Sequence record: MK962758
DNA from: Shigella phage JK55
Strand: one strand, 5' to 3'
DNA length: 64,000 nt
This document shows positions 1 through 56,000 of this stretch, piece by piece. Positions within the stretch are counted from its first letter, which is position 1. Every line of letters starts with the position of its first letter. The position numbers and the translations under genes were made by a program. The notes beneath the pieces were generated by a model. The model had not been told where the DNA came from. It saw only the letters and a program-made list of their open reading frames with translations, and did no database searches.

Positions 1-1101
1 ATGCGCATGGTAAACGACCACGCAGAAGTGATTAAGAGTTCAACTTCTTTGGAGACATCTCAAGCACAGATTACAATGACACCTGAAATGTTCAGCCTTT
101 TGAGTTCAGGTGTATACACATTCAAAGAAAGGGCAGTGATTCGTGAACTGTCATGTAACGCAGTAGATGCTCAAAAAGAAGCTGGAAAAGAGAACATCCC
201 ATTCCATGTGCATTTACCTACTCGATTTGAGCCTTACTTTGAAGTCCGTGACTTTGGAACTGGTTTAACCCATGACAAAGTAATGAGTTTGTATCTGAAC
301 TATGGGGCTTCTACGAAGAATGACTCCAATGATTACATTGGTGCAATGGGTATCGGCTCAAAATCCCCATTTGCAATTGCTCAGTCATTCACAGTATCTA
401 GCTATGTTGATGGTGTTGTTAATAAGTACTCTGTTTACCTTGAGAATGGTATCCCTCAAGTAACTAAGCTTACTACCAACCCAACAAATGAACCCAATGG
501 TTTAGCTGTACGTGTGGCAGTTGCTGACCATCGTATTTCAAAGTTCTTTGAAGAGGCTGGTCACGTATACTCATACTTTGCTGTGAAACCAGAAAGTAAT
601 ATTGTATATGATGACGTGTTAGCAGATATGAACGTCATTGCCCGTGAAGAGGGTGTTTATGATGCCATGATTCATAAGCAAAGCTGGCGTTCTAGTGGTA
701 ACAGGACAGAGTTTAATGTGGTGATGGGTAACATTGCCTACCCTGTTAACATGGAAGCATTACTTGGTGATGATTTCTTCAAAATCTTGCCAGAATTTTT
801 CCGTAGGAGCGTAGACCTTGTAAACATCTACATGCCTATTGGTTCAGTTGCTATTGCAGCTTCTCGTGAAGCATTACAGATGAATGACACGACAAAAAAT
901 GTTATCATTGAGGCTACTAAAAAGATAACTGAAGCCATTACAAAGGATGTTATCAAGAAAGTTAATAGCCAACCTACACTCATGGATGCCGCACAGGCTT
1001 ATGCTGAGTTACGTTTGAACTCACGAGAGATGTTTAATGCTGTGTGTCCAAAGCTAGAGTGGGTGGCGTTAAGCTTGATTCTCTGGAAGAAGAATTGCTA
1101 A
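1..1101 (+). CDS. rIIA: rIIA-like protein, N-terminal part (GHKL-type ATPase fold)
   Basis: GHKL motifs visible in translation: N-box RELSCNAVDA, G1 box DFGTG, G2-like GAMGIGSKS; PxGSxxIAxSREAL segment typical of rIIA family; followed by rIIB-like gene. Ends at stop 1099-1101 while an overlapping frame continues (see 1044..2366). Confidence 0.6.
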   Translation: MRMVNDHAEVIKSSTSLETSQAQITMTPEMFSLLSSGVYTFKERAVIRELSCNAVDAQKEAGKENIPFHVHLPTRFEPYFEVRDFGTGLTHDKVMSLYLNYGASTKNDSNDYIGAMGIGSKSPFAIAQSFTVSSYVDGVVNKYSVYLENGIPQVTKLTTNPTNEPNGLAVRVAVADHRISKFFEEAGHVYSYFAVKPESNIVYDDVLADMNVIAREEGVYDAMIHKQSWRSSGNRTEFNVVMGNIAYPVNMEALLGDDFFKILPEFFRRSVDLVNIYMPIGSVAIAASREALQMNDTTKNVIIEATKKITEAITKDVIKKVNSQPTLMDAAQAYAELRLNSREMFNAVCPKLEWVALSLILWKKNC

Positions 1102-2366
1102 ACATTCGTCGTGGAATTATCTACGCAGAAGACGGCTCAGTTATTTATGAACGTGACGGCAAAGGTAATATTAAGGTTGATAGGAACGGGAACAATATCC
1201 CTAAAGTAGATTATCTTTATGACCCAGTTGCTTATGTCAAGTTCAACTCTTTAGAGAGTAAGATTCGTGCAACATCGCTTTCCTACACTCAAGAGGCAAG
1301 TATGTTCAATATCTTTGGTGCAATGCGTAAAAGCCAAATTGAACAGTTTTTGTTTGTTATAAATGACCGTCGCAATAAAAATGGTACTGAGAAGACTGTA
1401 GGACGCAATCAGATTCTGCGTGGTGCATGTCGAGACTATGCCAGCGAGTCAAGCCTGTTTCACAGATATAATGGTATTGTCTTTGTATTCTCTACAGAGA
1501 AAGAGCTAGATGACTTAATCAATCTGCACAAACTTGATAAGAGCTTGTTAAAGATTGTGAAGATGTCTGATAAGGAACACCATTATCAGCGTAAAGAAGC
1601 TGTGAGAGGTGTTGTAAAACTCTGGAAAGCTGTTCCAGCAGAAGGTGTAGCCTCATACACAGAGGTGTCAGAAGACTTAGACACGATTGAAGAGCCTCAG
1701 CTTTATATTAAGGCAGTAGGTGACACAGTTGATGGCGAATGTTTTTGCTCATCTCCAGATGATGTAGCTAAGTCAGTTGCCAATGTCATTGGAAAGACAG
1801 TCTATGTTTTCCGAAAAGCAAATTGGAAAAAGATACCAGAAGACTGGATTGAAGTAGATGAGAAGCTCTTGAACGACAGCTTAACTGATGTTCATTGGAT
1901 TAATCATAACAGGTATATGACACGCGTCTGTATGCGTGGTGTCCTAGACCTTACAAGCTGTTGGATTATTACCAGAAACTTTACGTTCAATAACAGGAAG
2001 ATTTCTGATGGTTATTGCTATTCACGGGATACAAACAAAACTATCTTCCTAGAAGGTAATGAAGATGCTGTTGAGGCAATGTTCGGTAAAATCCAATACA
2101 TTGCTGCACAATTTGCATACACTTACACTATTAGTGTGTTGCAAGATTTGAAAAGGTGTCTTGATAATGATACAAAACTTTACAAGAAAATTAAGAAAGC
2201 TGGTGACCGTATGTTTATTAAGGTAACAAACTACTTCTCAAAAAGAAAACAAGAAAACTTCTTGCTTTCTCATCTAGATTGGAATAAAGTGTCACCCGTC
2301 GAAGTAAGTAAGTTCTTAGGCTTTGATGTGAAGTGTGTTCCAGAAGGAACTACAATTTACGATTAA
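1044..2366 (+). CDS. rIIA: rIIA-like protein, C-terminal part (continues in -1 frame relative to 1..1101; frameshifted or split gene)
   Basis: ORF opens (GTG at 1044) inside the 3' end of the previous ORF; combined length about 790 aa fits rIIA-size proteins; frame change coincides with a (TG)3 tract at 1041-1047. Confidence 0.45.
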   Translation: MSKARVGGVKLDSLEEELLNIRRGIIYAEDGSVIYERDGKGNIKVDRNGNNIPKVDYLYDPVAYVKFNSLESKIRATSLSYTQEASMFNIFGAMRKSQIEQFLFVINDRRNKNGTEKTVGRNQILRGACRDYASESSLFHRYNGIVFVFSTEKELDDLINLHKLDKSLLKIVKMSDKEHHYQRKEAVRGVVKLWKAVPAEGVASYTEVSEDLDTIEEPQLYIKAVGDTVDGECFCSSPDDVAKSVANVIGKTVYVFRKANWKKIPEDWIEVDEKLLNDSLTDVHWINHNRYMTRVCMRGVLDLTSCWIITRNFTFNNRKISDGYCYSRDTNKTIFLEGNEDAVEAMFGKIQYIAAQFAYTYTISVLQDLKRCLDNDTKLYKKIKKAGDRMFIKVTNYFSKRKQENFLLSHLDWNKVSPVEVSKFLGFDVKCVPEGTTIYD

Positions 2367-2371
2367 AGTGT

Positions 2372-2401
2372 TTGACAAGGGGCTTCGAAGCCCCTTAGAA
2401 T
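2372..2401 (+). promoter_or_regulatory. sigma70-like promoter with perfect hairpin in spacer (TTGACA - AGGGGCTTCGAAGCCCCT - TAGAAT); could alternatively act as terminator-like hairpin after rIIA
   Basis: TTGACA at 2372-2377, 18-nt spacer forming 7-bp stem with TCGA loop, TAGAAT at 2396-2401. Confidence 0.4.
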
Positions 2402-2412
2402 AGCCTTACAAA

Positions 2413-3555
2413 ATGATTTATCAACTAACAAGAGAGAGTAATAAGATGACTACTAAAACTAAAGCACAGATTGACGCAGAAATTTACGAACTGGTTAAAG
2501 AAGGTAAGCTGACTAAAACAGCTATTGCACAGAAGTTCAATACTTCAACCCGTTCAGTTGGTCGTGCTGTAGAGCGTCATGAAGCAACCTTAAAAGGTAA
2601 GAAAAAGGTAGCTTCTAAACCAGCTACGAAGACTTTGAAGCAAGTTGCTAAATCAGTTAAAAAGAAAGCTGACAAACCAGTTGAAAAGGTTGTTAAAGAG
2701 CCTGTACAGAAAGCTCCGGTAAATAAACTGCATGAAGCTATGCAGAATGGCAACCAGATTGAGTACATGATTACTGGCGACTCTGTTATCATGACTTTCG
2801 GTGCAGATTCTGAAATCGTTGAATCTACCCATCCGAACTACAAAGAAATCGTGATGGCTGTTGTATCCGGTGAGTATAAGAAAGCTTTCGAACTGATGAA
2901 CATTCGTAAGTCTATCGAAAACTTCACTCAGGGTGCTATCACCATCAAAGGTGACAAGTTATTCTACGGTGCTGTTGAGATGCGTTCTACTCTGGTTGAC
3001 CGTATTCTTCACATGATGAAGACTGGAGATAAGGGTTTTGAACGCCTTGTGATGTTCTTCGAAAAACTGATGGAAAACCCATCTAAAGATTCTGTAGAAC
3101 AACTTTGGGGATTCGTATCTCACCTTGATGTTGAAATTGATGAAGAAGGCTACATCATTGGTTGGAAGAAAGTCTCTACTCGTGAAGGCAAGCTGGTTGA
3201 CTCCCACACCTACAGAGTACCTAATGATTTGGGTAACATTGTAGAAATGCCACGTTGGATGGTTGATAATAACCGTAACGTGACTTGCTCTCAAGGTCTT
3301 CACGTTGGTGCTTGGGATTACGTTCGTTACTTCTCAGGTGATACAATCCTGAAGGTTCGTGTCCATCCACGAGATGTTGTATCTGTTCCAACTGATTACA
3401 ACGATATGAAGATGCGTTCGTCTCGTTATGAAGTTGCAGCAATCGTTGATAATCAACGTAAAGTGCTGAAAGAATGGGATGGCAAGACTGAAGCTTTGCA
3501 TGTCATCGTTGGTACTGCTGGAGAACTTATCTCTCAACGTAAACGTGAAATCTAA
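2413..3555 (+). CDS. rIIB: rIIB-like protein
   Basis: Immediately downstream of rIIA-like gene; C-terminal HPRDVVSVPTDYNDMKMRSSRYEV and LVDRIL segments resemble rIIB family as I recall it; true start may be ATG at 2446. Confidence 0.45.
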   Translation: MIYQLTRESNKMTTKTKAQIDAEIYELVKEGKLTKTAIAQKFNTSTRSVGRAVERHEATLKGKKKVASKPATKTLKQVAKSVKKKADKPVEKVVKEPVQKAPVNKLHEAMQNGNQIEYMITGDSVIMTFGADSEIVESTHPNYKEIVMAVVSGEYKKAFELMNIRKSIENFTQGAITIKGDKLFYGAVEMRSTLVDRILHMMKTGDKGFERLVMFFEKLMENPSKDSVEQLWGFVSHLDVEIDEEGYIIGWKKVSTREGKLVDSHTYRVPNDLGNIVEMPRWMVDNNRNVTCSQGLHVGAWDYVRYFSGDTILKVRVHPRDVVSVPTDYNDMKMRSSRYEVAAIVDNQRKVLKEWDGKTEALHVIVGTAGELISQRKREI

Positions 3556-8119: not shown

Positions 8120-8179
8120 TTGACTCTTTGAACGGGGTTATCTAGTATTTGCATCAACGGGGAGGGAATGACCTTCCCC
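8120..8179 (+). promoter_or_regulatory. type-A early cassette: promoter (TTGACT-17-TAGTAT) plus 5'UTR hairpin GGGGAGGGAATGACCTTCCCC and GGAG RBS
   Basis: -35 at 8120-8125, -10 at 8143-8148, hairpin 8159-8179, conserved tail ACTAAATAAAGTCCTAAACTGGAGATTCAAAAATG to start 8212. Confidence 0.6.
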
Positions 8180-8211
8180 ACTAAATAAAGTCCTAAACTG
8201 GAGATTCAAAA

Positions 8212-8592
8212 ATGAAATATCGTGCGCCTAAATTCATCAACAAAGACAACTTTCGTAGCGTACTGGAGAAGTCACTTGATGAAAATTTCAAAGGTAATGT
8301 GATTGTTGTTCACTCGTTCAATTTTAAGTATGATATCAACGGGAATAAAATCAACCATTACACGGCAACCATGTTAGATGGCACTCTTTCAAGTGAAAAA
8401 ACAATTCTACATGCACTTGCTGGGCGTGGAAAAAACCTGATAAGATGCGATAAGAGACGTTATCAGGGTGGCGCATATGGTTACGATGACGCTATTTATC
8501 ATCTTGAAAATATGGGCTATCAAGTAGAAAAAGCTGGAGTATCACAAATCATCGGGAGCGATGGTTATGTAACAATCTTCAAAATTAACTGA
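8212..8592 (+). CDS. hypothetical small early protein
   Basis: ORF directly behind type-A cassette with GGAG RBS 8 nt upstream. Confidence 0.6.
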   Translation: MKYRAPKFINKDNFRSVLEKSLDENFKGNVIVVHSFNFKYDINGNKINHYTATMLDGTLSSEKTILHALAGRGKNLIRCDKRRYQGGAYGYDDAIYHLENMGYQVEKAGVSQIIGSDGYVTIFKIN

Positions 8593-8600
8593 TAAAGTAC

Positions 8601-8636
8601 TTTACAAGGGGCTTATAGTTCGATAAAGTAAGCCCC
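8601..8636 (+). promoter_or_regulatory. type-B early cassette: TTTACA-17-TAAAGT promoter-like element overlapping hairpin GGGGCTTA...TAAGCCCC
   Basis: -35-like TTTACA 8601-8606, -10-like TAAAGT 8624-8629, 8-bp stem hairpin 8608-8636, then AGATAAAGAGCTTTACCACT..GGAGA..ATG. Confidence 0.5.
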
Positions 8637-8681
8637 AGATAAAGAGCTTTACCACTCAATCCTAAATTGGAGAACTAAAAA

Positions 8682-8939
8682 ATGGCTATTATCAAAAACG
8701 TTGTAGTTACTGCAAAGACTCGCGATGACGCTCGCATTATGGCTAAAAAGTTATGCGGAAAAGTGGTTGACAACGGAAAACAATCTGCTGTAAGATGGGG
8801 CGTAAAGGCTGATAAACAACTAACCTTAAAACGCAGTTCAAACAACCTTTTTAAAGGTGTAAAATCACTCGGTAAAGTGAACGTCTTTACCAAAAAAGGC
8901 TATAAAATGCACTTATCATTAACTGGCAATTTAATCTGA
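8682..8939 (+). CDS. hypothetical small early protein (basic, 85 aa)
   Basis: ORF behind type-B cassette. Confidence 0.55.
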   Translation: MAIIKNVVVTAKTRDDARIMAKKLCGKVVDNGKQSAVRWGVKADKQLTLKRSSNNLFKGVKSLGKVNVFTKKGYKMHLSLTGNLI

Positions 8940-8947
8940 TAAAGTAC

Positions 8948-8983
8948 TTTACAGGGGGCTTAAAAGTTGATATCTTAAGCCCC
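8948..8983 (+). promoter_or_regulatory. type-B early cassette (TTTACA-17-TATCTT; hairpin GGGGCTTAA...TTAAGCCCC)
   Basis: Same architecture as 8601-8636 with 9-bp stem. Confidence 0.5.
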
Positions 8984-9027
8984 AGATAAAGAGCTTTACC
9001 ACTAAATCCTAAACTGGAGATTCAAAA

Positions 9028-9540
9028 ATGAAAACTGTAGACGCTACCTTTGAAGTTGTAAAAGAAAAATTCACCATTATTTATGAAGCTGTCAATTGCT
9101 TTGAAGCAAGCCATAATCTCGATAATTGGGAGTTTACAAACGACCATCAAGGCGGTGTGACTGTTAAAAATCCTAACTGTCAGCATAATGATTTTAAATA
9201 TGCAATCCCTTTGCATTACAGCCTTAAACAGCTTTCAAGTGACTATGCAAAACAAGGCCGCGATAATCCATCGAAAGAGGCTTACACGAGCTTACAGAAA
9301 GAACTAGAAAGAGATTTAGAGGCTTCAGAGTATAACCTTGCCGCGAAAGTTGTGGATGCAAACGGTAACACGGTTTTAGAAAGTTTTTATCTTGGTTATG
9401 CTTTCGATTGGTGCTATCGTGACGGCGATGATTTAGAGGATAGACTAAAAGAAGAGGTGAACAACGCAGACGCAGAATCTGAAGTATTAGAACGTTTGGA
9501 ATCATTGAAAGACTCAGTGATGAATATCTTTAAGAACTAA
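9028..9540 (+). CDS. hypothetical early protein (170 aa, acidic C-terminus)
   Basis: ORF behind type-B cassette. Confidence 0.55.
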   Translation: MKTVDATFEVVKEKFTIIYEAVNCFEASHNLDNWEFTNDHQGGVTVKNPNCQHNDFKYAIPLHYSLKQLSSDYAKQGRDNPSKEAYTSLQKELERDLEASEYNLAAKVVDANGNTVLESFYLGYAFDWCYRDGDDLEDRLKEEVNNADAESEVLERLESLKDSVMNIFKN

Positions 9541-9550
9541 ATAGATTTCT

Positions 9551-9590
9551 TTACACGGGGTTATCAAGCTGGTAGGATAGCCCCAGATAA
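9551..9590 (+). promoter_or_regulatory. type-B-variant early cassette (TTTACA-17-TAGGAT; hairpin GGGGTTATC...ATAGCCCC)
   Basis: Variant hairpin sequence but same positions relative to ATG at 9633. Confidence 0.4.
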
Positions 9591-9632
9591 ATAGATTTAT
9601 CAAATAAAGCCCTTAAACTAGGAGATTCTAAA

Positions 9633-9929
9633 ATGAAATTATCAAATCAAGTGCGTGAAAATTTGAGCAAATTACTCAACAAAATTGATTTCATTGAAAC
9701 ATCAAGGAATAGTCATGATGTTATGGAATGGTTACACGGCAAAATAAAAGGTCGTCGTGTAGTGATTTGCTTATGGAATAGTTGCAGGGAGTATAAAAAA
9801 CCTGTATTGCAAGTCAATATTTACGATGATACTTTTAAAAGCCCTGTAAAGTCTAAAAGCGATTTATTAGAATCTTATGAGATAACTGTAAGTGGCAAAG
9901 TATCACGTAAAGAGGAAACACCATGTTAA
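9633..9929 (+). CDS. hypothetical small early protein
   Basis: ORF behind cassette; 3' end overlaps next ORF. Confidence 0.5.
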   Translation: MKLSNQVRENLSKLLNKIDFIETSRNSHDVMEWLHGKIKGRRVVICLWNSCREYKKPVLQVNIYDDTFKSPVKSKSDLLESYEITVSGKVSRKEETPC

Positions 9930-10255
9930 TGACTGGTATCACTGCAATCATTGCCATTTTCGCGCTATATAAGGCATATAAAGCCTATAATCTAGCAAAT
10001 AAGGCAATCACACAGCAGGTTAGCAATAACCTTGTAGAAAGCTTTCTAGGACGTCTCAGTGATGAGCAAATAAAGCGGCTAGAGATGAGCTTCAGATATA
10101 AAGCGAAAACCTATCAGATAAGTGACATCTTCAAAGATGATTTTCAGCTTGTCGATGATTATAATGCTCTGATAAATGCTTTAAATATCAGTGACTTAAA
10201 AGACTACTACGCTGTAATTGTTCAAGAACTGAGCAAACGAAAAAATTCCTCTTGA
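9923..10255 (+). CDS. hypothetical small membrane protein (N-terminal TM helix)
   Basis: Hydrophobic segment LMTGITAIIAIFALY; start overlaps previous gene; no own cassette. Confidence 0.45.
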   Translation: MLMTGITAIIAIFALYKAYKAYNLANKAITQQVSNNLVESFLGRLSDEQIKRLEMSFRYKAKTYQISDIFKDDFQLVDDYNALINALNISDLKDYYAVIVQELSKRKNSS

Positions 10256-10310
10256 TTTTGGTTTTTAAAGCAAGTAAATTACTAATCAACGGGGAGGAAA
10301 TGACCTCCCC
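10252..10310 (+). promoter_or_regulatory. type-A early cassette (TTGATT-17-TAAATT; hairpin GGGGAGGAAATGACCTCCCC)
   Basis: -35 10252-10257, -10 10275-10280, hairpin 10291-10310 with compensatory stem change relative to other copies. Confidence 0.55.
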
Positions 10311-10343
10311 ACTACATAAAACCCTTAAACTAGGAGATTCAAA

Positions 10344-10616
10344 ATGTATACTACTAACAACGGTCGCACCTTAAACGTAACCCTGCGCCACTATGTGAAC
10401 GGTGTAATGCACTTCGAGGATTTACAAGCCGAACAACATATTCTGAATTGGCAACTTGCAGGGCTGCAAAAAACTGCTACAGGATACGGTAAAAAGATTC
10501 CAACTAGTTGGAAAGTATACTACGAAGGCCGTTTGCGTAGAATTTATCAAGATGTACACAGCAATAGCGCAACAAGTTACATCATGGTAAAAGGTAAAAA
10601 GCTGCATTTAGTATAA
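10344..10616 (+). CDS. hypothetical small early protein
   Basis: ORF behind type-A cassette. Confidence 0.55.
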   Translation: MYTTNNGRTLNVTLRHYVNGVMHFEDLQAEQHILNWQLAGLQKTATGYGKKIPTSWKVYYEGRLRRIYQDVHSNSATSYIMVKGKKLHLV

Positions 10617-10621
10617 AGTAC

Positions 10622-10657
10622 TTTACAAGGGGCTTATAGTTCGATAAAGTAAGCCCC
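10622..10657 (+). promoter_or_regulatory. type-B early cassette (identical hairpin to 8608-8636)
   Basis: AAGTACTTTACAAGGGGCTTATAGTTCGATAAAGTAAGCCCCAGATAAAGAGC repeated. Confidence 0.5.
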
Positions 10658-10702
10658 AGATAAAGAGCTTTACCACTAAATCCTAAATTGGAGAACTTAA
10701 AA

Positions 10703-11107
10703 ATGGCTATTAATAACCGTGAATTATCAATTTTAAAAGCACGTTTGACCGTTAACCGGATTAATGTCATCACGTCATCAGCACCAGATGAAACACTGCA
10801 AAACATTATTGGGAAGATTCAAAGTGTTATCTTAGACGTTGAAAGCGTAAAAAATTCATTGGCTGACGTTGCAGCAGGTATCACACTAGACGGTGCGCAA
10901 TATGAAATGTCCGACATGTTAGGCAAATCTAAGGTAATGAATAAAGAGTTAGATTTGAAAATGTTCCGATTTGCTGTTAAAGTGTGGCTATCTGTCGAGT
11001 ATGATGCTAACTTTGCAATCGCTGACTTTTTCGCCACTTGGTTGCAGCGTAATTTGACTAATCATGACTTCCGCGATATCTGTGATGCAATTTATGCAGA
11101 ACTCTAA
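10703..11107 (+). CDS. hypothetical early protein
   Basis: Start chosen at ATG 10703 (conserved GGAGAACTTAAAAATG context) rather than the track ATG at 10688, which lies within the RBS region. Confidence 0.5.
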   Translation: MAINNRELSILKARLTVNRINVITSSAPDETLQNIIGKIQSVILDVESVKNSLADVAAGITLDGAQYEMSDMLGKSKVMNKELDLKMFRFAVKVWLSVEYDANFAIADFFATWLQRNLTNHDFRDICDAIYAEL

Positions 11108-11116
11108 AAAATTTTG

Positions 11117-11176
11117 TTGACACTGGTTTTTAGATAGATTAAATTACACATCAACGGGGAGGGAATGACCTTCCCC
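11117..11176 (+). promoter_or_regulatory. type-A early cassette (TTGACA-17-TAAATT; hairpin GGGGAGGGAATGACCTTCCCC)
   Basis: -35 11117-11122, -10 11140-11145, hairpin 11156-11176. Confidence 0.6.
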
Positions 11177-11208
11177 ACTAAATAAAGTCCTAAACTGGAG
11201 ATTCAAAA

Positions 11209-11412
11209 ATGGCTATTATTAATGGTTTAACCATTGAAACTACACACATCAAAGATATCAAAGTTGGTGATATAGTCCTTTCCCACGGCGTAGAAAAAAC
11301 TGTCACTGCAAAGGATATCAAAGAGGATTCTTTCATGGGTAGGACTCTCTTCGGTGATTCTTATTGCTTAGGCTATCTTGCAGTTTTAAAAGTTGTCAAA
11401 AATAACAAATAA
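11209..11412 (+). CDS. hypothetical small early protein (67 aa)
   Basis: ORF behind type-A cassette. Confidence 0.5.
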   Translation: MAIINGLTIETTHIKDIKVGDIVLSHGVEKTVTAKDIKEDSFMGRTLFGDSYCLGYLAVLKVVKNNK

Positions 11413-11416
11413 AGTA

Positions 11417-11452
11417 CTTTACAAGGGGCTTAAAAGTTGATAACTTAAGCCT
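11417..11452 (+). promoter_or_regulatory. type-B early cassette (hairpin GGGGCTTAA...TTAAGCCTC)
   Basis: Same architecture; one stem mismatch. Confidence 0.45.
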
Positions 11453-11497
11453 CAGATAAAGAGCTTTACCACTAAATCCTAAACTGGAGATTCAAAA

Positions 11498-12040
11498 ATG
11501 AAATGTTTTCACGGAACTACTCAAGAAAATTTCCTCAACCTGATTAATAACGGTGATAAACCATCAGGCGCATGGAATTGTTCGGATATGGACGGCAATT
11601 TTTACGTGTATCCAGAAAATAAAATCTATGGCGACGATGAGGAAGAGATAACATCAGAAGGCATCCAGCAAGCTCTAGGCAATGCCACTATCACCGCAGC
11701 TTTTCAGATGAAGACTCAAAATATTGTTATCTTAGAACTCGATATTCCAGAGGATGAGCTGAATGACGATTATTATTGTGATAATATGTCGAGTGTAGCA
11801 AGTTTTACAGAGTACTTTGATGTAAATTGGATTAAAAAGGTCTATACAACAGAGTTTAACGCTATGTATTCACCTTTTTGTCTTCCTTCATTGGATAACC
11901 CAAATTTAAACTATCTTGATGAGTCTCTGGAGCTTCTTGCTAAAAGTGTTCAACAGTCGGACAGTATTCAGGTTTTTTGTGACATCATGGACACGCTGAC
12001 AGGAAACATCACAGAAGAGGATTTAAAGAGCTTTTTCTAA
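11498..12040 (+). CDS. hypothetical early protein (180 aa, acidic)
   Basis: ORF behind type-B cassette. Confidence 0.55.
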   Translation: MKCFHGTTQENFLNLINNGDKPSGAWNCSDMDGNFYVYPENKIYGDDEEEITSEGIQQALGNATITAAFQMKTQNIVILELDIPEDELNDDYYCDNMSSVASFTEYFDVNWIKKVYTTEFNAMYSPFCLPSLDNPNLNYLDESLELLAKSVQQSDSIQVFCDIMDTLTGNITEEDLKSFF

Positions 12041-12072
12041 AAACCTACACAATCACCTTATAAACACTGATT

Positions 12073-12093
12073 AGCCCCTTGTAGGGGCTTTTA
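12073..12093 (+). terminator. rho-independent terminator (AGCCCCT-TGT-AGGGGCT + TTTT)
   Basis: 7-bp GC-rich stem, short loop, T-run. Confidence 0.6.
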
Positions 12094-12106
12094 GAGGGCT
12101 TAAATC

Positions 12107-12340
12107 ATGCTAACAACCGTTTATCTCATCCTCTCAATTTGTAATGGCCATTCATGTGACTTTAAAGGGCTTGAAGAGTTTACAGGGAGTAAAGAAAATG
12201 CTATTCAAGTTTGCCAGATAGCAAGGCAAGACTATCCCGCCAGTGATGATATACAATGCTACTTTAAGACAGAAGATGAAGAAGGAATCTATTTCGACAG
12301 CGTTGATGGTCAATATGAAATTATCATTGAAAAAGACTAG
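12107..12340 (+). CDS. hypothetical small protein (77 aa)
   Basis: ORF with AGAGGG RBS; the only gene in the array without a cassette. Confidence 0.45.
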   Translation: MLTTVYLILSICNGHSCDFKGLEEFTGSKENAIQVCQIARQDYPASDDIQCYFKTEDEEGIYFDSVDGQYEIIIEKD

Positions 12341-12397
12341 ACAAGCCTGATAAAAGTCTGTAAATTGTCAATCAACGGGGAGGGAATGACCTTCCCC
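12338..12397 (+). promoter_or_regulatory. type-A early cassette (TAGACA-17-TAAATT; hairpin)
   Basis: -35 12338-12343, -10 12361-12366, hairpin 12377-12397. Confidence 0.55.
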
Positions 12398-12432
12398 ACT
12401 AAATAAAGTCCTTAAACTAGGAGATTCCAAAA

Positions 12433-12774
12433 ATGGCTTATGTAACCGTAATTACCGATAAAGCTGGCGCATCTTGGTCAACTCAGGTTAGTGATAAGAT
12501 GTCGCCTATGCAGTGCCTAAAATACTTTGAACAGTGGAACAAAGGCGAGGACACAAGCCCCTTTCAAGTGATGCAGATTATCCATGTAGACAACGAAGGG
12601 AAGAAAACAACTCTGAATAGTGAGTACTATGCAAGCCGTTTTGAAACGAGAAGTAAAACAATGAAGCTTCTACGTGAATCCGGTTATACCCATATCGCCG
12701 CGTTAATCTGGGATGACCTTCTAAAAAGTCAACGTATCAGCTATGTAAAGCCTGAAAAAATATTCATCAGTTAA
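12433..12774 (+). CDS. hypothetical early protein (113 aa)
   Basis: ORF behind type-A cassette. Confidence 0.55.
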   Translation: MAYVTVITDKAGASWSTQVSDKMSPMQCLKYFEQWNKGEDTSPFQVMQIIHVDNEGKKTTLNSEYYASRFETRSKTMKLLRESGYTHIAALIWDDLLKSQRISYVKPEKIFIS

Positions 12775-12903
12775 TCAATAACTTACAAAAAACTTTTAAA
12801 AAAGTGTTGACAATACCCCTTGACATTGGTAACTTTGTTCGAGGGGGTTTATCTAAAAGGGATTCACTTAAAAGATTCTTTATAGATAAGCTTAAAAAAT
12901 TGC

Positions 12904-12960
12904 TTGCAATCAGCTATCAAAACAAGTAAATTACTAATCAACGGGAGGGATAACCTCCCC
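12904..12960 (+). promoter_or_regulatory. type-A early cassette (TTGCAA-17-TAAATT; hairpin GGGAGGGATAACCTCCC)
   Basis: -35 12904-12909, -10 12927-12932, hairpin 12943-12960 with covarying stem. Confidence 0.5.
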
Positions 12961-12993
12961 ACTAAATAAAATCCTTAAACTAGGAGAGTCAAA

Positions 12994-13524
12994 ATGAACA
13001 AGTTTAAAGCTATCAACTTCATTCGTTCAAATGCTGTAATGTCAAAACCTGTAAAAGACACATACGAATTTCGCTGCAATGGGGTACACTTTGCAACCAT
13101 CACTAAGTCAGAAAACGGGGCTTATTACATTCATCGCCGTAATGTTTCTACTGTTGTAGTCTCTCACTTTATGCAAGCTGTAGCGGAATTATTACCGTTA
13201 TTCTTAGAGATTTACTTAGATGAGTGCAAAAACGTTCGTAACCACGTTAAAAACCTTTTAAACGGTTATAAAATGGCTTATGAACGTTCTATCAAGTCCT
13301 TAAACAAGTTTTATAAAGCCCCTGTAAATACTGTTTCAATGGCTTACAGTGTAAGCGGTGAGTTGGTTAGCCTCTTCGAAGTAGAAGAAATTGAACTATA
13401 TGACTCACGTCCTAGCGGTTACTCTAAGACACTGGGAGAAGGTTTATCTTTCAATATCAAGAACTTAGAAAAAACTTTAAAAGATATTGAAAAAGATATT
13501 GACGAAACAATCAAAAGTCTGTAA
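12994..13524 (+). CDS. hypothetical early protein (176 aa)
   Basis: ORF behind type-A cassette. Confidence 0.55.
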   Translation: MNKFKAINFIRSNAVMSKPVKDTYEFRCNGVHFATITKSENGAYYIHRRNVSTVVVSHFMQAVAELLPLFLEIYLDECKNVRNHVKNLLNGYKMAYERSIKSLNKFYKAPVNTVSMAYSVSGELVSLFEVEEIELYDSRPSGYSKTLGEGLSFNIKNLEKTLKDIEKDIDETIKSL

Positions 13525-13558
13525 ATTGTCAATCAACGGGGAGGGAATGACCTTCCCC
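13499..13558 (+). promoter_or_regulatory. type-A early cassette (TTGACG-17-TAAATT; hairpin); promoter lies inside 3' end of upstream gene
   Basis: -35 13499-13504, -10 13522-13527, hairpin 13538-13558. Confidence 0.55.
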
Positions 13559-13603
13559 GCTAAACAAAACCCTTAATCAACTTCCTAAACTGGAGATTCT
13601 AAA

Positions 13604-55198: not shown

Positions 55199-55744
55199 TC
55201 AAAAGTGCCCTTTTACTTGTGGAACATAAATCTCAAAGGTTGCTTTACCATCCTCTGAGGGTCTTGATTGTACCTTTGCAAATACACGGCTATCATACAG
55301 TTTATCAAAGAAGTTTTCAAAAGGTAAATACACAGTGGCCTCTTCAGTGACTTTATGGAAAACTGTATGGAAAACTACACCAGCATACGGCAAAGCATCG
55401 ACAAGAACACCTGCACCACCAATTACAAAGACATCTTCATCAATAGAGCTATCAAGATACTTCAAAAATGCTCCAAATGACTCTTTACTGGCTTTAGCAT
55501 ACATTACATCATCTTTGCCAAAGTCTATGCCTAAGTATGGTACAGAATTTGTTAAGATGAGGTTTGCACGTTCTGGTAAAGGTTTACTACCCAGAGTCTT
55601 AAAAGTCTCATTACCCATGACTACTAAGTTATTTTTAGTGAGTCTCTTAAACTCTTGCATGTCCTGTTTATGTCGAGGCCACGGCATACCAGTCGGTGTA
55701 CCAAATTCACCGTTTTCACCACTTGCAAATATTAGTTTAATCAT
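55199..55744 (-). CDS. frd: dihydrofolate reductase
   Basis: N-terminal MIKLIFA...GMPW pattern typical of DHFR; directly upstream of thyA. Confidence 0.7.
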   Translation of the reverse strand: MIKLIFASGENGEFGTPTGMPWPRHKQDMQEFKRLTKNNLVVMGNETFKTLGSKPLPERANLILTNSVPYLGIDFGKDDVMYAKASKESFGAFLKYLDSSIDEDVFVIGGAGVLVDALPYAGVVFHTVFHKVTEEATVYLPFENFFDKLYDSRVFAKVQSRPSEDGKATFEIYVPQVKGHF

Positions 55745-55784: not shown

Positions 55785-56000
55785 TCACAAATTTACTACG
55801 ATGGTAGATAAAATGTGAGAGGGTTGGTATGAACCATAAGCCCAGAAAGCGATAATTTCATTACACCCTGTGCATCGGGTACTTTCTTCAGCAATATGAC
55901 CATTGACTATTTCACTTACCTCACCTTGTAAGTCTGTACACCCACAATGTGGACAACGGATAGGTGTTCCATCAGACTCATAGCAGTGTTCAATTTTCAT
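55785..56000 (-). CDS. small zinc-ribbon protein
   Basis: CPHCGC ... CTGCN Cys pairs. Confidence 0.45.
   Translation of the reverse strand: MKIEHCYESDGTPIRCPHCGCTDLQGEVSEIVNGHIAEESTRCTGCNEIIAFWAYGSYQPSHILSTIVVNL

Follow-up and report, generated by a model that had tools for sequence, protein, structure and literature searches.

A private one-base frame break in the rIIA gene of the Felixounavirus genome recorded for Shigella phage JK55

The gene rIIA is divided between two reading frames in the sequence recorded for Shigella phage JK55 (MK962758), and the frame break is a very recent, private and unprogrammed lesion of the -1 type: a run of three G at 1061-1063 (+ strand) stands where Escherichia phage dune and every relative examined have four. 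Positions are those of the window, by which we mean the whole stretch of 64,000 nucleotides that was analysed, a Felixounavirus (Felix-O1-like myovirus) genome whose base 1 is the A of the rIIA ATG. The kind of lesion is already known, being either the textbook change of +/-1 nucleotide in a short rII homopolymer or its sequencing look-alike, and the site is probably neither a recoding signal nor a switch, whether the deletion is real or an artefact. In our judgement the chances stand level that the deletion is genuine in the phage DNA, where it would constitute a private loss-of-function allele of rIIA, neither programmed nor regulated.

A megablast search with positions 1-2400 matched 237 phage records, the top one being dune (MN850636), which annotates the same DNA as a single rIIA CDS of 2367 nt and 788 aa, followed by rIIB. 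In the window this DNA carries two open reading frames, which exist as an earlier note on the sequence had described them. The first (ORF1, the 5' part of rIIA, 1..1101, + strand, frame 1) encodes 366 aa and stops with the TAA at 1099-1101; the second lies in frame 3, where a TAA at 1035-1037 is followed by an open stretch from 1038 to 2366. ORF2 as listed comprises 1044..2366 (440 aa) and starts with GTG 1044 only since frame 3 opens at 1038, while the native 3' part of rIIA extends over 1062..2366 (+ strand, frame 3) and includes residues 355-788 and the stop codon, with a protein 100% identical to that of dune.

The relationship between the two frames is indicated by the RIIA profile PHROG 612 (725 positions), in which ORF1 residues 1-352 match positions 1-335 (E 3e-145) and ORF2 residues 6-423 match positions 337-717 (E 2.9e-39). 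The two ORFs are the halves of one rIIA gene, and the proposal of the earlier note that a single rIIA of about 790 aa had been split agrees both with the continuity of the profile at 335/337 and with the 788 aa of the intact homologue. It is hardly conceivable that a GHKL ATPase gene is instead overlapped by an unrelated, independent gene. Gene callers would give two CDSs in such a region, and the phage MET-P1-301 has been annotated in this way; against this, ORF2 is related to the C-terminal region of RIIA, it resumes the profile where ORF1 leaves it, it reproduces residues 355-788 of the dune protein and it lacks its own ribosome-binding site. Separate translation of ORF2 was in fact rejected as a candidate, no Shine-Dalgarno-like sequence being found before GTG 1044, GTG 1059 or TTG 1095; the first ORF2 start with such a sequence is ATG 1302.

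The GHKL-domain label that had been given to ORF1 is a reasonable one, although the similarity behind it is local and lies under the family cut-offs. Residues 30-134 match the NCBIfam HSP90-family N-terminus (E 3.6e-12, under the family cut-off), the sacsin ATP-binding domain is matched with an E of 1.6e-7, under its curated cut-off, the match to Pfam HATPase_c is marginal (E 0.09), and a PDB sequence search with ORF1 gave no match. The putative GHKL/HSP90-like ATP-binding region is accordingly placed, on local sub-cut-off similarity, at residues ~30-140 of RIIA (+ strand). RIIA is highly conserved up to about residue 300 and less so beyond, and the alignment of distant RIIA and RIIB profiles ends at about residue 310-330; a conservation-based domain-boundary test showed neither a clear linker nor an indel hotspot at residue 354.

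The lesion itself emerges from a base-by-base comparison, in which dune reads GAGTGGGGTGG and the window GAGTGGGTGG, with one G fewer (in the wider context, ...CTAGAGTGGGGTGGCG... in dune and ...CTAGAGTGGGTGGCG... in the window). As the earlier note had it, a single -1 frame change divides the gene. The four G belong in the wild type to the codons TGG GGN (TGG GGT in dune), which encode Trp354 and Gly355. The native frame-1 reading thus comprises codons 1-354 (nt 1-1062) and has as its last codon that of Trp354 (TGG, 1060-1062); codons 355-366 of ORF1 (VALSLILWKKNC) are 12 out-of-frame residues followed by TAA, and frame 3 takes up native RIIA at Gly355, from 1062. The missing G is the sole difference between dune and the window within 1-2421, the first substitution being found at 2422, past the gene. 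Re-insertion of one G after 1063 restores the exact dune rIIA of 2367 nt and 788 aa, and since no further difference follows up to 2421, the lesion is extremely young.

The window is nevertheless a different genome from dune, for outside the rIIA block the identity between the two falls to about 88-98%. A segment 1-2421 that is base-for-base identical to dune apart from the missing G, in a genome whose remainder is 88-98% identical, suggests on this distribution of identity that the rIIA block is a mosaic segment exchanged recently.

The crossing of the two frames had been assigned by the earlier note to the (TG)3 tract (1041..1046, + strand) within GCTGTGTGTCC, which is indeed present at 1039-1049. 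Slippage at this tract was dropped as the frame junction, because the tract has a constant length in 27/27 close relatives, in which the frame is unbroken at this point, and the indel is located 15-20 nt downstream; alignment to rIIA homologues maps the junction to the G run at 1061-1063 (G4->G3) and not to the TG repeat. Its prominence comes solely from the opening of frame 3 at this place, which also provides a GTG. The hexamer TGTGTG is present in the window in 18 copies, versus 44 +/- 7 expected from shuffles.

The survey of relatives indicates how isolated the allele is. Twenty-seven close relatives, 4 from GenBank and 23 from IMG/VR, were read at the lesion site; all of them carry GGGG and all have a TG tract of the same length. 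When a 71-nt probe across the site was compared with 50,697 phage records, none of its 189 GenBank phage matches was exact, and all 12 among the matches listed span 72 nt, that is, they contain the extra G. The G3 allele was also absent from IMG/VR, metagenome and GTDB genome contigs when these were scanned with exact and degenerate patterns. Proteins identical to those of ORF1, ORF2 (for two choices of start) and RIIB were looked up in the large assembly collection, and none is on record there. Each of the best 60 GenBank relatives gave one uninterrupted match of 788 aa by tblastn, rIIA is uninterrupted in 33 of the 35 relatives fetched and split in the window, and a single ORF of 785-797 aa is kept in relatives down to 35% identity. 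As a consequence of the absence of the G3 allele elsewhere and of the single-ORF organization of the relatives, the two-frame layout has effectively zero evolutionary age. Summed over 19 relatives, the N half of rIIA shows 964 nucleotide versus 105 amino acid differences and the C half 1652 versus 370; by these counts both halves are under purifying selection.

Three records assigned to other hosts, MG065664 and MG065668 (Campylobacter phages A132/A126) and GU169904 (Staphylococcus phage SA1), contain an rIIA that shares 97% identity with that of the E. coli/Salmonella Felixounavirus phages; these are probably contaminated or chimeric records.

A split gene with overlapping frames might also be a programmed or regulated device that yields full-length RIIA part of the time. 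A switch could sit at the G or the (TG)3 tract, ribosomes could shift by -1, transcription could slip, or tRNA-Val could re-pair, but we consider all of these together very improbable. Frame 3 is open over 1038-1098, and a -1 shift anywhere in those 61 nt would restore RIIA; yet this zone contains no X XXY YYZ heptamer, and its simple repeats are just (TG)3, AAA and GGG. The earlier note had likewise reported the absence of an XXXYYYZ slippery heptamer, and none is found in 1035-1101, so that canonical programmed frameshifting is not supported. Folded without pseudoknots, the RNA of 1064-1160 reaches -19.3 kcal/mol and is no more stable than its shuffles (-19.9 +/- 2.8; z = +0.22). The deletion creates a tandem GTGGGTGG at 1059-1066 (GTGG-GTGG), on which tRNA-Val could in principle re-pair at -4, although no evidence points to this. 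A deletion of one TG unit would bring the frame back in the manner of a classical second-site suppressor, which is a prediction on revertants and not evidence for a switch.

Programmed -1 frameshifting is known from dnaX and from the phage tail-assembly chaperone G/GT, and the rIIA site resembles these systems in its overlapping ORFs, the second of which is in the -1 frame; it differs from them in being devoid of a slippery site, of a stimulatory structure and of a conserved arrangement. This candidate was rejected on the lack of a heptamer, of a downstream structure and of any conservation of the layout, which is common to no relative, almost all those sampled being single-ORF. Transcriptional slippage was discarded as well, the longest runs in the overlap being AAA and GGG.

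Contingency loci typically consist of a homopolymer of at least 7 nt, or of many di- or tetranucleotide units. The tracts considered here, G3 (G4 in the wild type) and (TG)3, have 3-4 nt or 3 units, far below known contingency loci and slippage sites, and the length of neither varies among the 27 relatives. The slippage-controlled on/off switch that the earlier note had included among its possibilities therefore finds no footing, the tracts being far too short and monomorphic and the G3 allele having been found neither in the 27 relatives nor in the contig collections scanned, and what remains is the pair that the note had correctly named, a genuine frameshift or a sequencing error.

Under the second of these, the phage would have G4 and an intact rIIA of 788 aa, and base calling or assembly would have dropped one G from the consensus, a possibility to which we assign somewhat less than an even chance. 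Contraction of a G run by one base is a typical base-calling error, and here it is private to this sequence, in a gene that is otherwise identical to that of dune and bears no sign of decay. As a genome-wide check on the assembly, a screen for private indels was carried out by combining tblastn of the dune ORFs, an inventory of all indels versus dune and a comparison with six near-complete relatives (dune, LNA6, LNA1, LF110P1, KEP2 and S.Kent 1-2-1). Versus these six, only two private isolated indels are present in the window, at 1061 and at ~55817.

The second lesion, at ~55817/55818, is again a single-G deletion (GG->G; on the + strand, TGTGGAGAG -> TGTGAGAG), and the extra base is present in 5/6 of the near-complete relatives and in all 15 best GenBank matches. 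It breaks another conserved ORF, the homologue of dune_74, a small CxxC...CxxC ORF (55785-56000, - strand) which is reduced from 86 to 71 aa by the deletion. This ORF lies just upstream of the DHFR gene (55199-55744), and the deletion removes their ATGA stop/start overlap. Two fresh frameshifts in 64 kb exceed what neutral mutation during isolation normally gives, and since both G deletions follow GTG (GTGG context), they hint at a systematic error. Moreover, assemblies of this genus based on nanopore (long-read-only) data are being deposited (e.g. PMC13348056), and among the records with a split rIIA described below, those of EC6, MET-P1-301, GE_vB_NS7 and GE_vB_B3, some are probably assembly errors.

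Other features speak against an error. There are just two events in 64 kb, both in probably non-essential genes and hence tolerable for a viable phage, and the comparison with the six near-complete relatives shows no private indels elsewhere. The longer runs of rIIA (A6, A5, T5) are all correct and neither of the two sites is a long homopolymer; in fact, 26/26 runs of at least 4 bases in the rIIA of the window agree with dune, among them an A6 and nine runs of 5, which is not the signature of an assembly prone to homopolymer errors. The rIIA break shares with homopolymer indel errors of phage assemblies the contraction of a G run in one record, in a gene that nearly all sampled relatives have intact; it is distinguished from them by the scarcity of events and by their positions, for such errors tend to gather at the longest runs and neither site is one of these. 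Both private indels fall in likely dispensable genes and none in the structural module of ~30 kb, and this placement, together with the intact longer runs, favours a real lesion over an error. An artefactual deletion would call for a one-base fix of the record at 1061-1063, giving a single rIIA of 788 aa, and a further correction would probably be due at ~55817.

A split rIIA is found in a few other records of the group. In EC6 (JX560968 = IMGVR_UViG_2706796256) an extra C follows an A6 run at nt ~900 of the gene (locus ~1400), in MET-P1-301 (PV700625) an A5 is shortened to A4 at nt ~920 (locus 1420-1424), and GE_vB_NS7 and GE_vB_B3 give split rIIA matches. The records with independent frame breaks in rIIA include PV700625, JX560968, MG969414 and MG969406. 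The records of EC6, MET-P1-301, GE_vB_NS7 and GE_vB_B3 resemble the window in having independent frame breaks in the same gene, and those of EC6 and MET-P1-301 are within 165 nt of the lesion of the window, just past the conserved N-terminal module; on the other hand, positions and bases differ and the G3 allele occurs in none of them.

The three frameshifts of EC6, MET-P1-301 and the window fall at nt 900-1064 of the gene, a clustering with a chance of ~1.4% for three random hits in 2367 nt when calculated post hoc. We think it improbable that Felixounavirus isolates have repeatedly been selected for truncation of RIIA just past its ATPase-like N-terminal module. If they have been, selection could, on our analysis, operate through the picking of larger plaques or through escape from a defence that senses RIIA/RIIB. 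The latter idea is modelled on T6, in which rIIB frameshifts allow escape from a bacterial gasdermin system and rII frameshift mutants emerge readily under selection (PMC10312443).

The closest parallel for a genuine deletion is offered by T4, in which rIIA is likewise adjacent to rIIB, a change of +/-1 nt in a short homopolymer truncates the product, and the gene is dispensable on permissive hosts and needed against specific host defences. The classical spontaneous rII frameshift mutants of T4 arose by slippage in mononucleotide runs, as described by the Streisinger model, and include the +/- mutants of Crick and Brenner. The loss of 1 nt within a mononucleotide run relative to the wild type (G4->G3) is a change of the Streisinger type. 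The window differs from T4 in being a Felixounavirus and not a T-even phage, and the r (rapid-lysis) phenotype and the sensitivity to Rex are known from T4, whereas the present case is read from sequence alone.

Immediately downstream of rIIA, the rIIB gene (2446..3555, + strand, 369 aa) is intact; RIIB PHROGs match the window at 2446-3552 (E 2e-88) and the gene order is as in dune. A candidate sigma-70-like promoter is located in the intergenic region at 2372..2401 (+ strand, TTGACA-18-TAGAAT, a consensus match of 11/12), and its spacer corresponds to a perfect hairpin at 2377-2396 with a stem of 8 bp (AAGGGGCTTCGAAGCCCCTT). From their sequences, hairpin and promoter-like site may form a combined arrangement of terminator and promoter, and they suggest that rIIB is transcribed independently. 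Given a near-consensus promoter-like site before rIIB, the break in rIIA need not be polar, and polarity on rIIB appears unlikely.

Promoter-like elements were also noticed in another part of the genome. Between small early genes at ~8150-13600 the window contains a family of repeats of ~60-110 nt (for example 8579-8691, 8939-9033, 10613-10712 and 11396-11503), which finish with ...TAAACT(A)GGAGATTC ahead of start codons and, from this composition, look like repeated cassettes of an early promoter and a ribosome-binding site.

If the deletion is genuine, one G would have been lost by homopolymer slippage from the G4 of the Trp354-Gly355 codons, in an otherwise intact rIIA identical to that of dune. 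The predicted product is a protein of 366 aa, composed of 354 native residues with the GHKL-like module and 12 junk residues, and it would keep the whole of the highly conserved N-terminal region, while the C-terminal 434 residues would be unmade, or made only in traces via reinitiation. Expression of rIIB would continue from its own promoter. Since ordinary laboratory hosts do not require rIIA, the phage would stay viable on them, and what it should have lost is the counter-defence that depends on RIIA/RIIB, directed against qatABCD in the Felixounavirus Bas63 and against RexAB in T4.

This prediction draws on a true orthologue. The RIIA of Bas63 (JohannRWettstein) is 96.8% identical, and Bas63 without g85 (RIIA) or g84 (RIIB) is viable, with its plating on qatABCD reduced by 10^4-10^5-fold (bioRxiv 10.1101/2024.10.10.617714). 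In T4, rIIA/B are required only against RexAB. If the lesion is real, this isolate is a Felix-O1-like phage with a naturally truncated rIIA, which could be used directly as a control in work on the role of RIIA in the genus, such as its part in defeating qatABCD- or Rex-like systems. Therapy and biocontrol would then have to allow for a host range that may be narrower.
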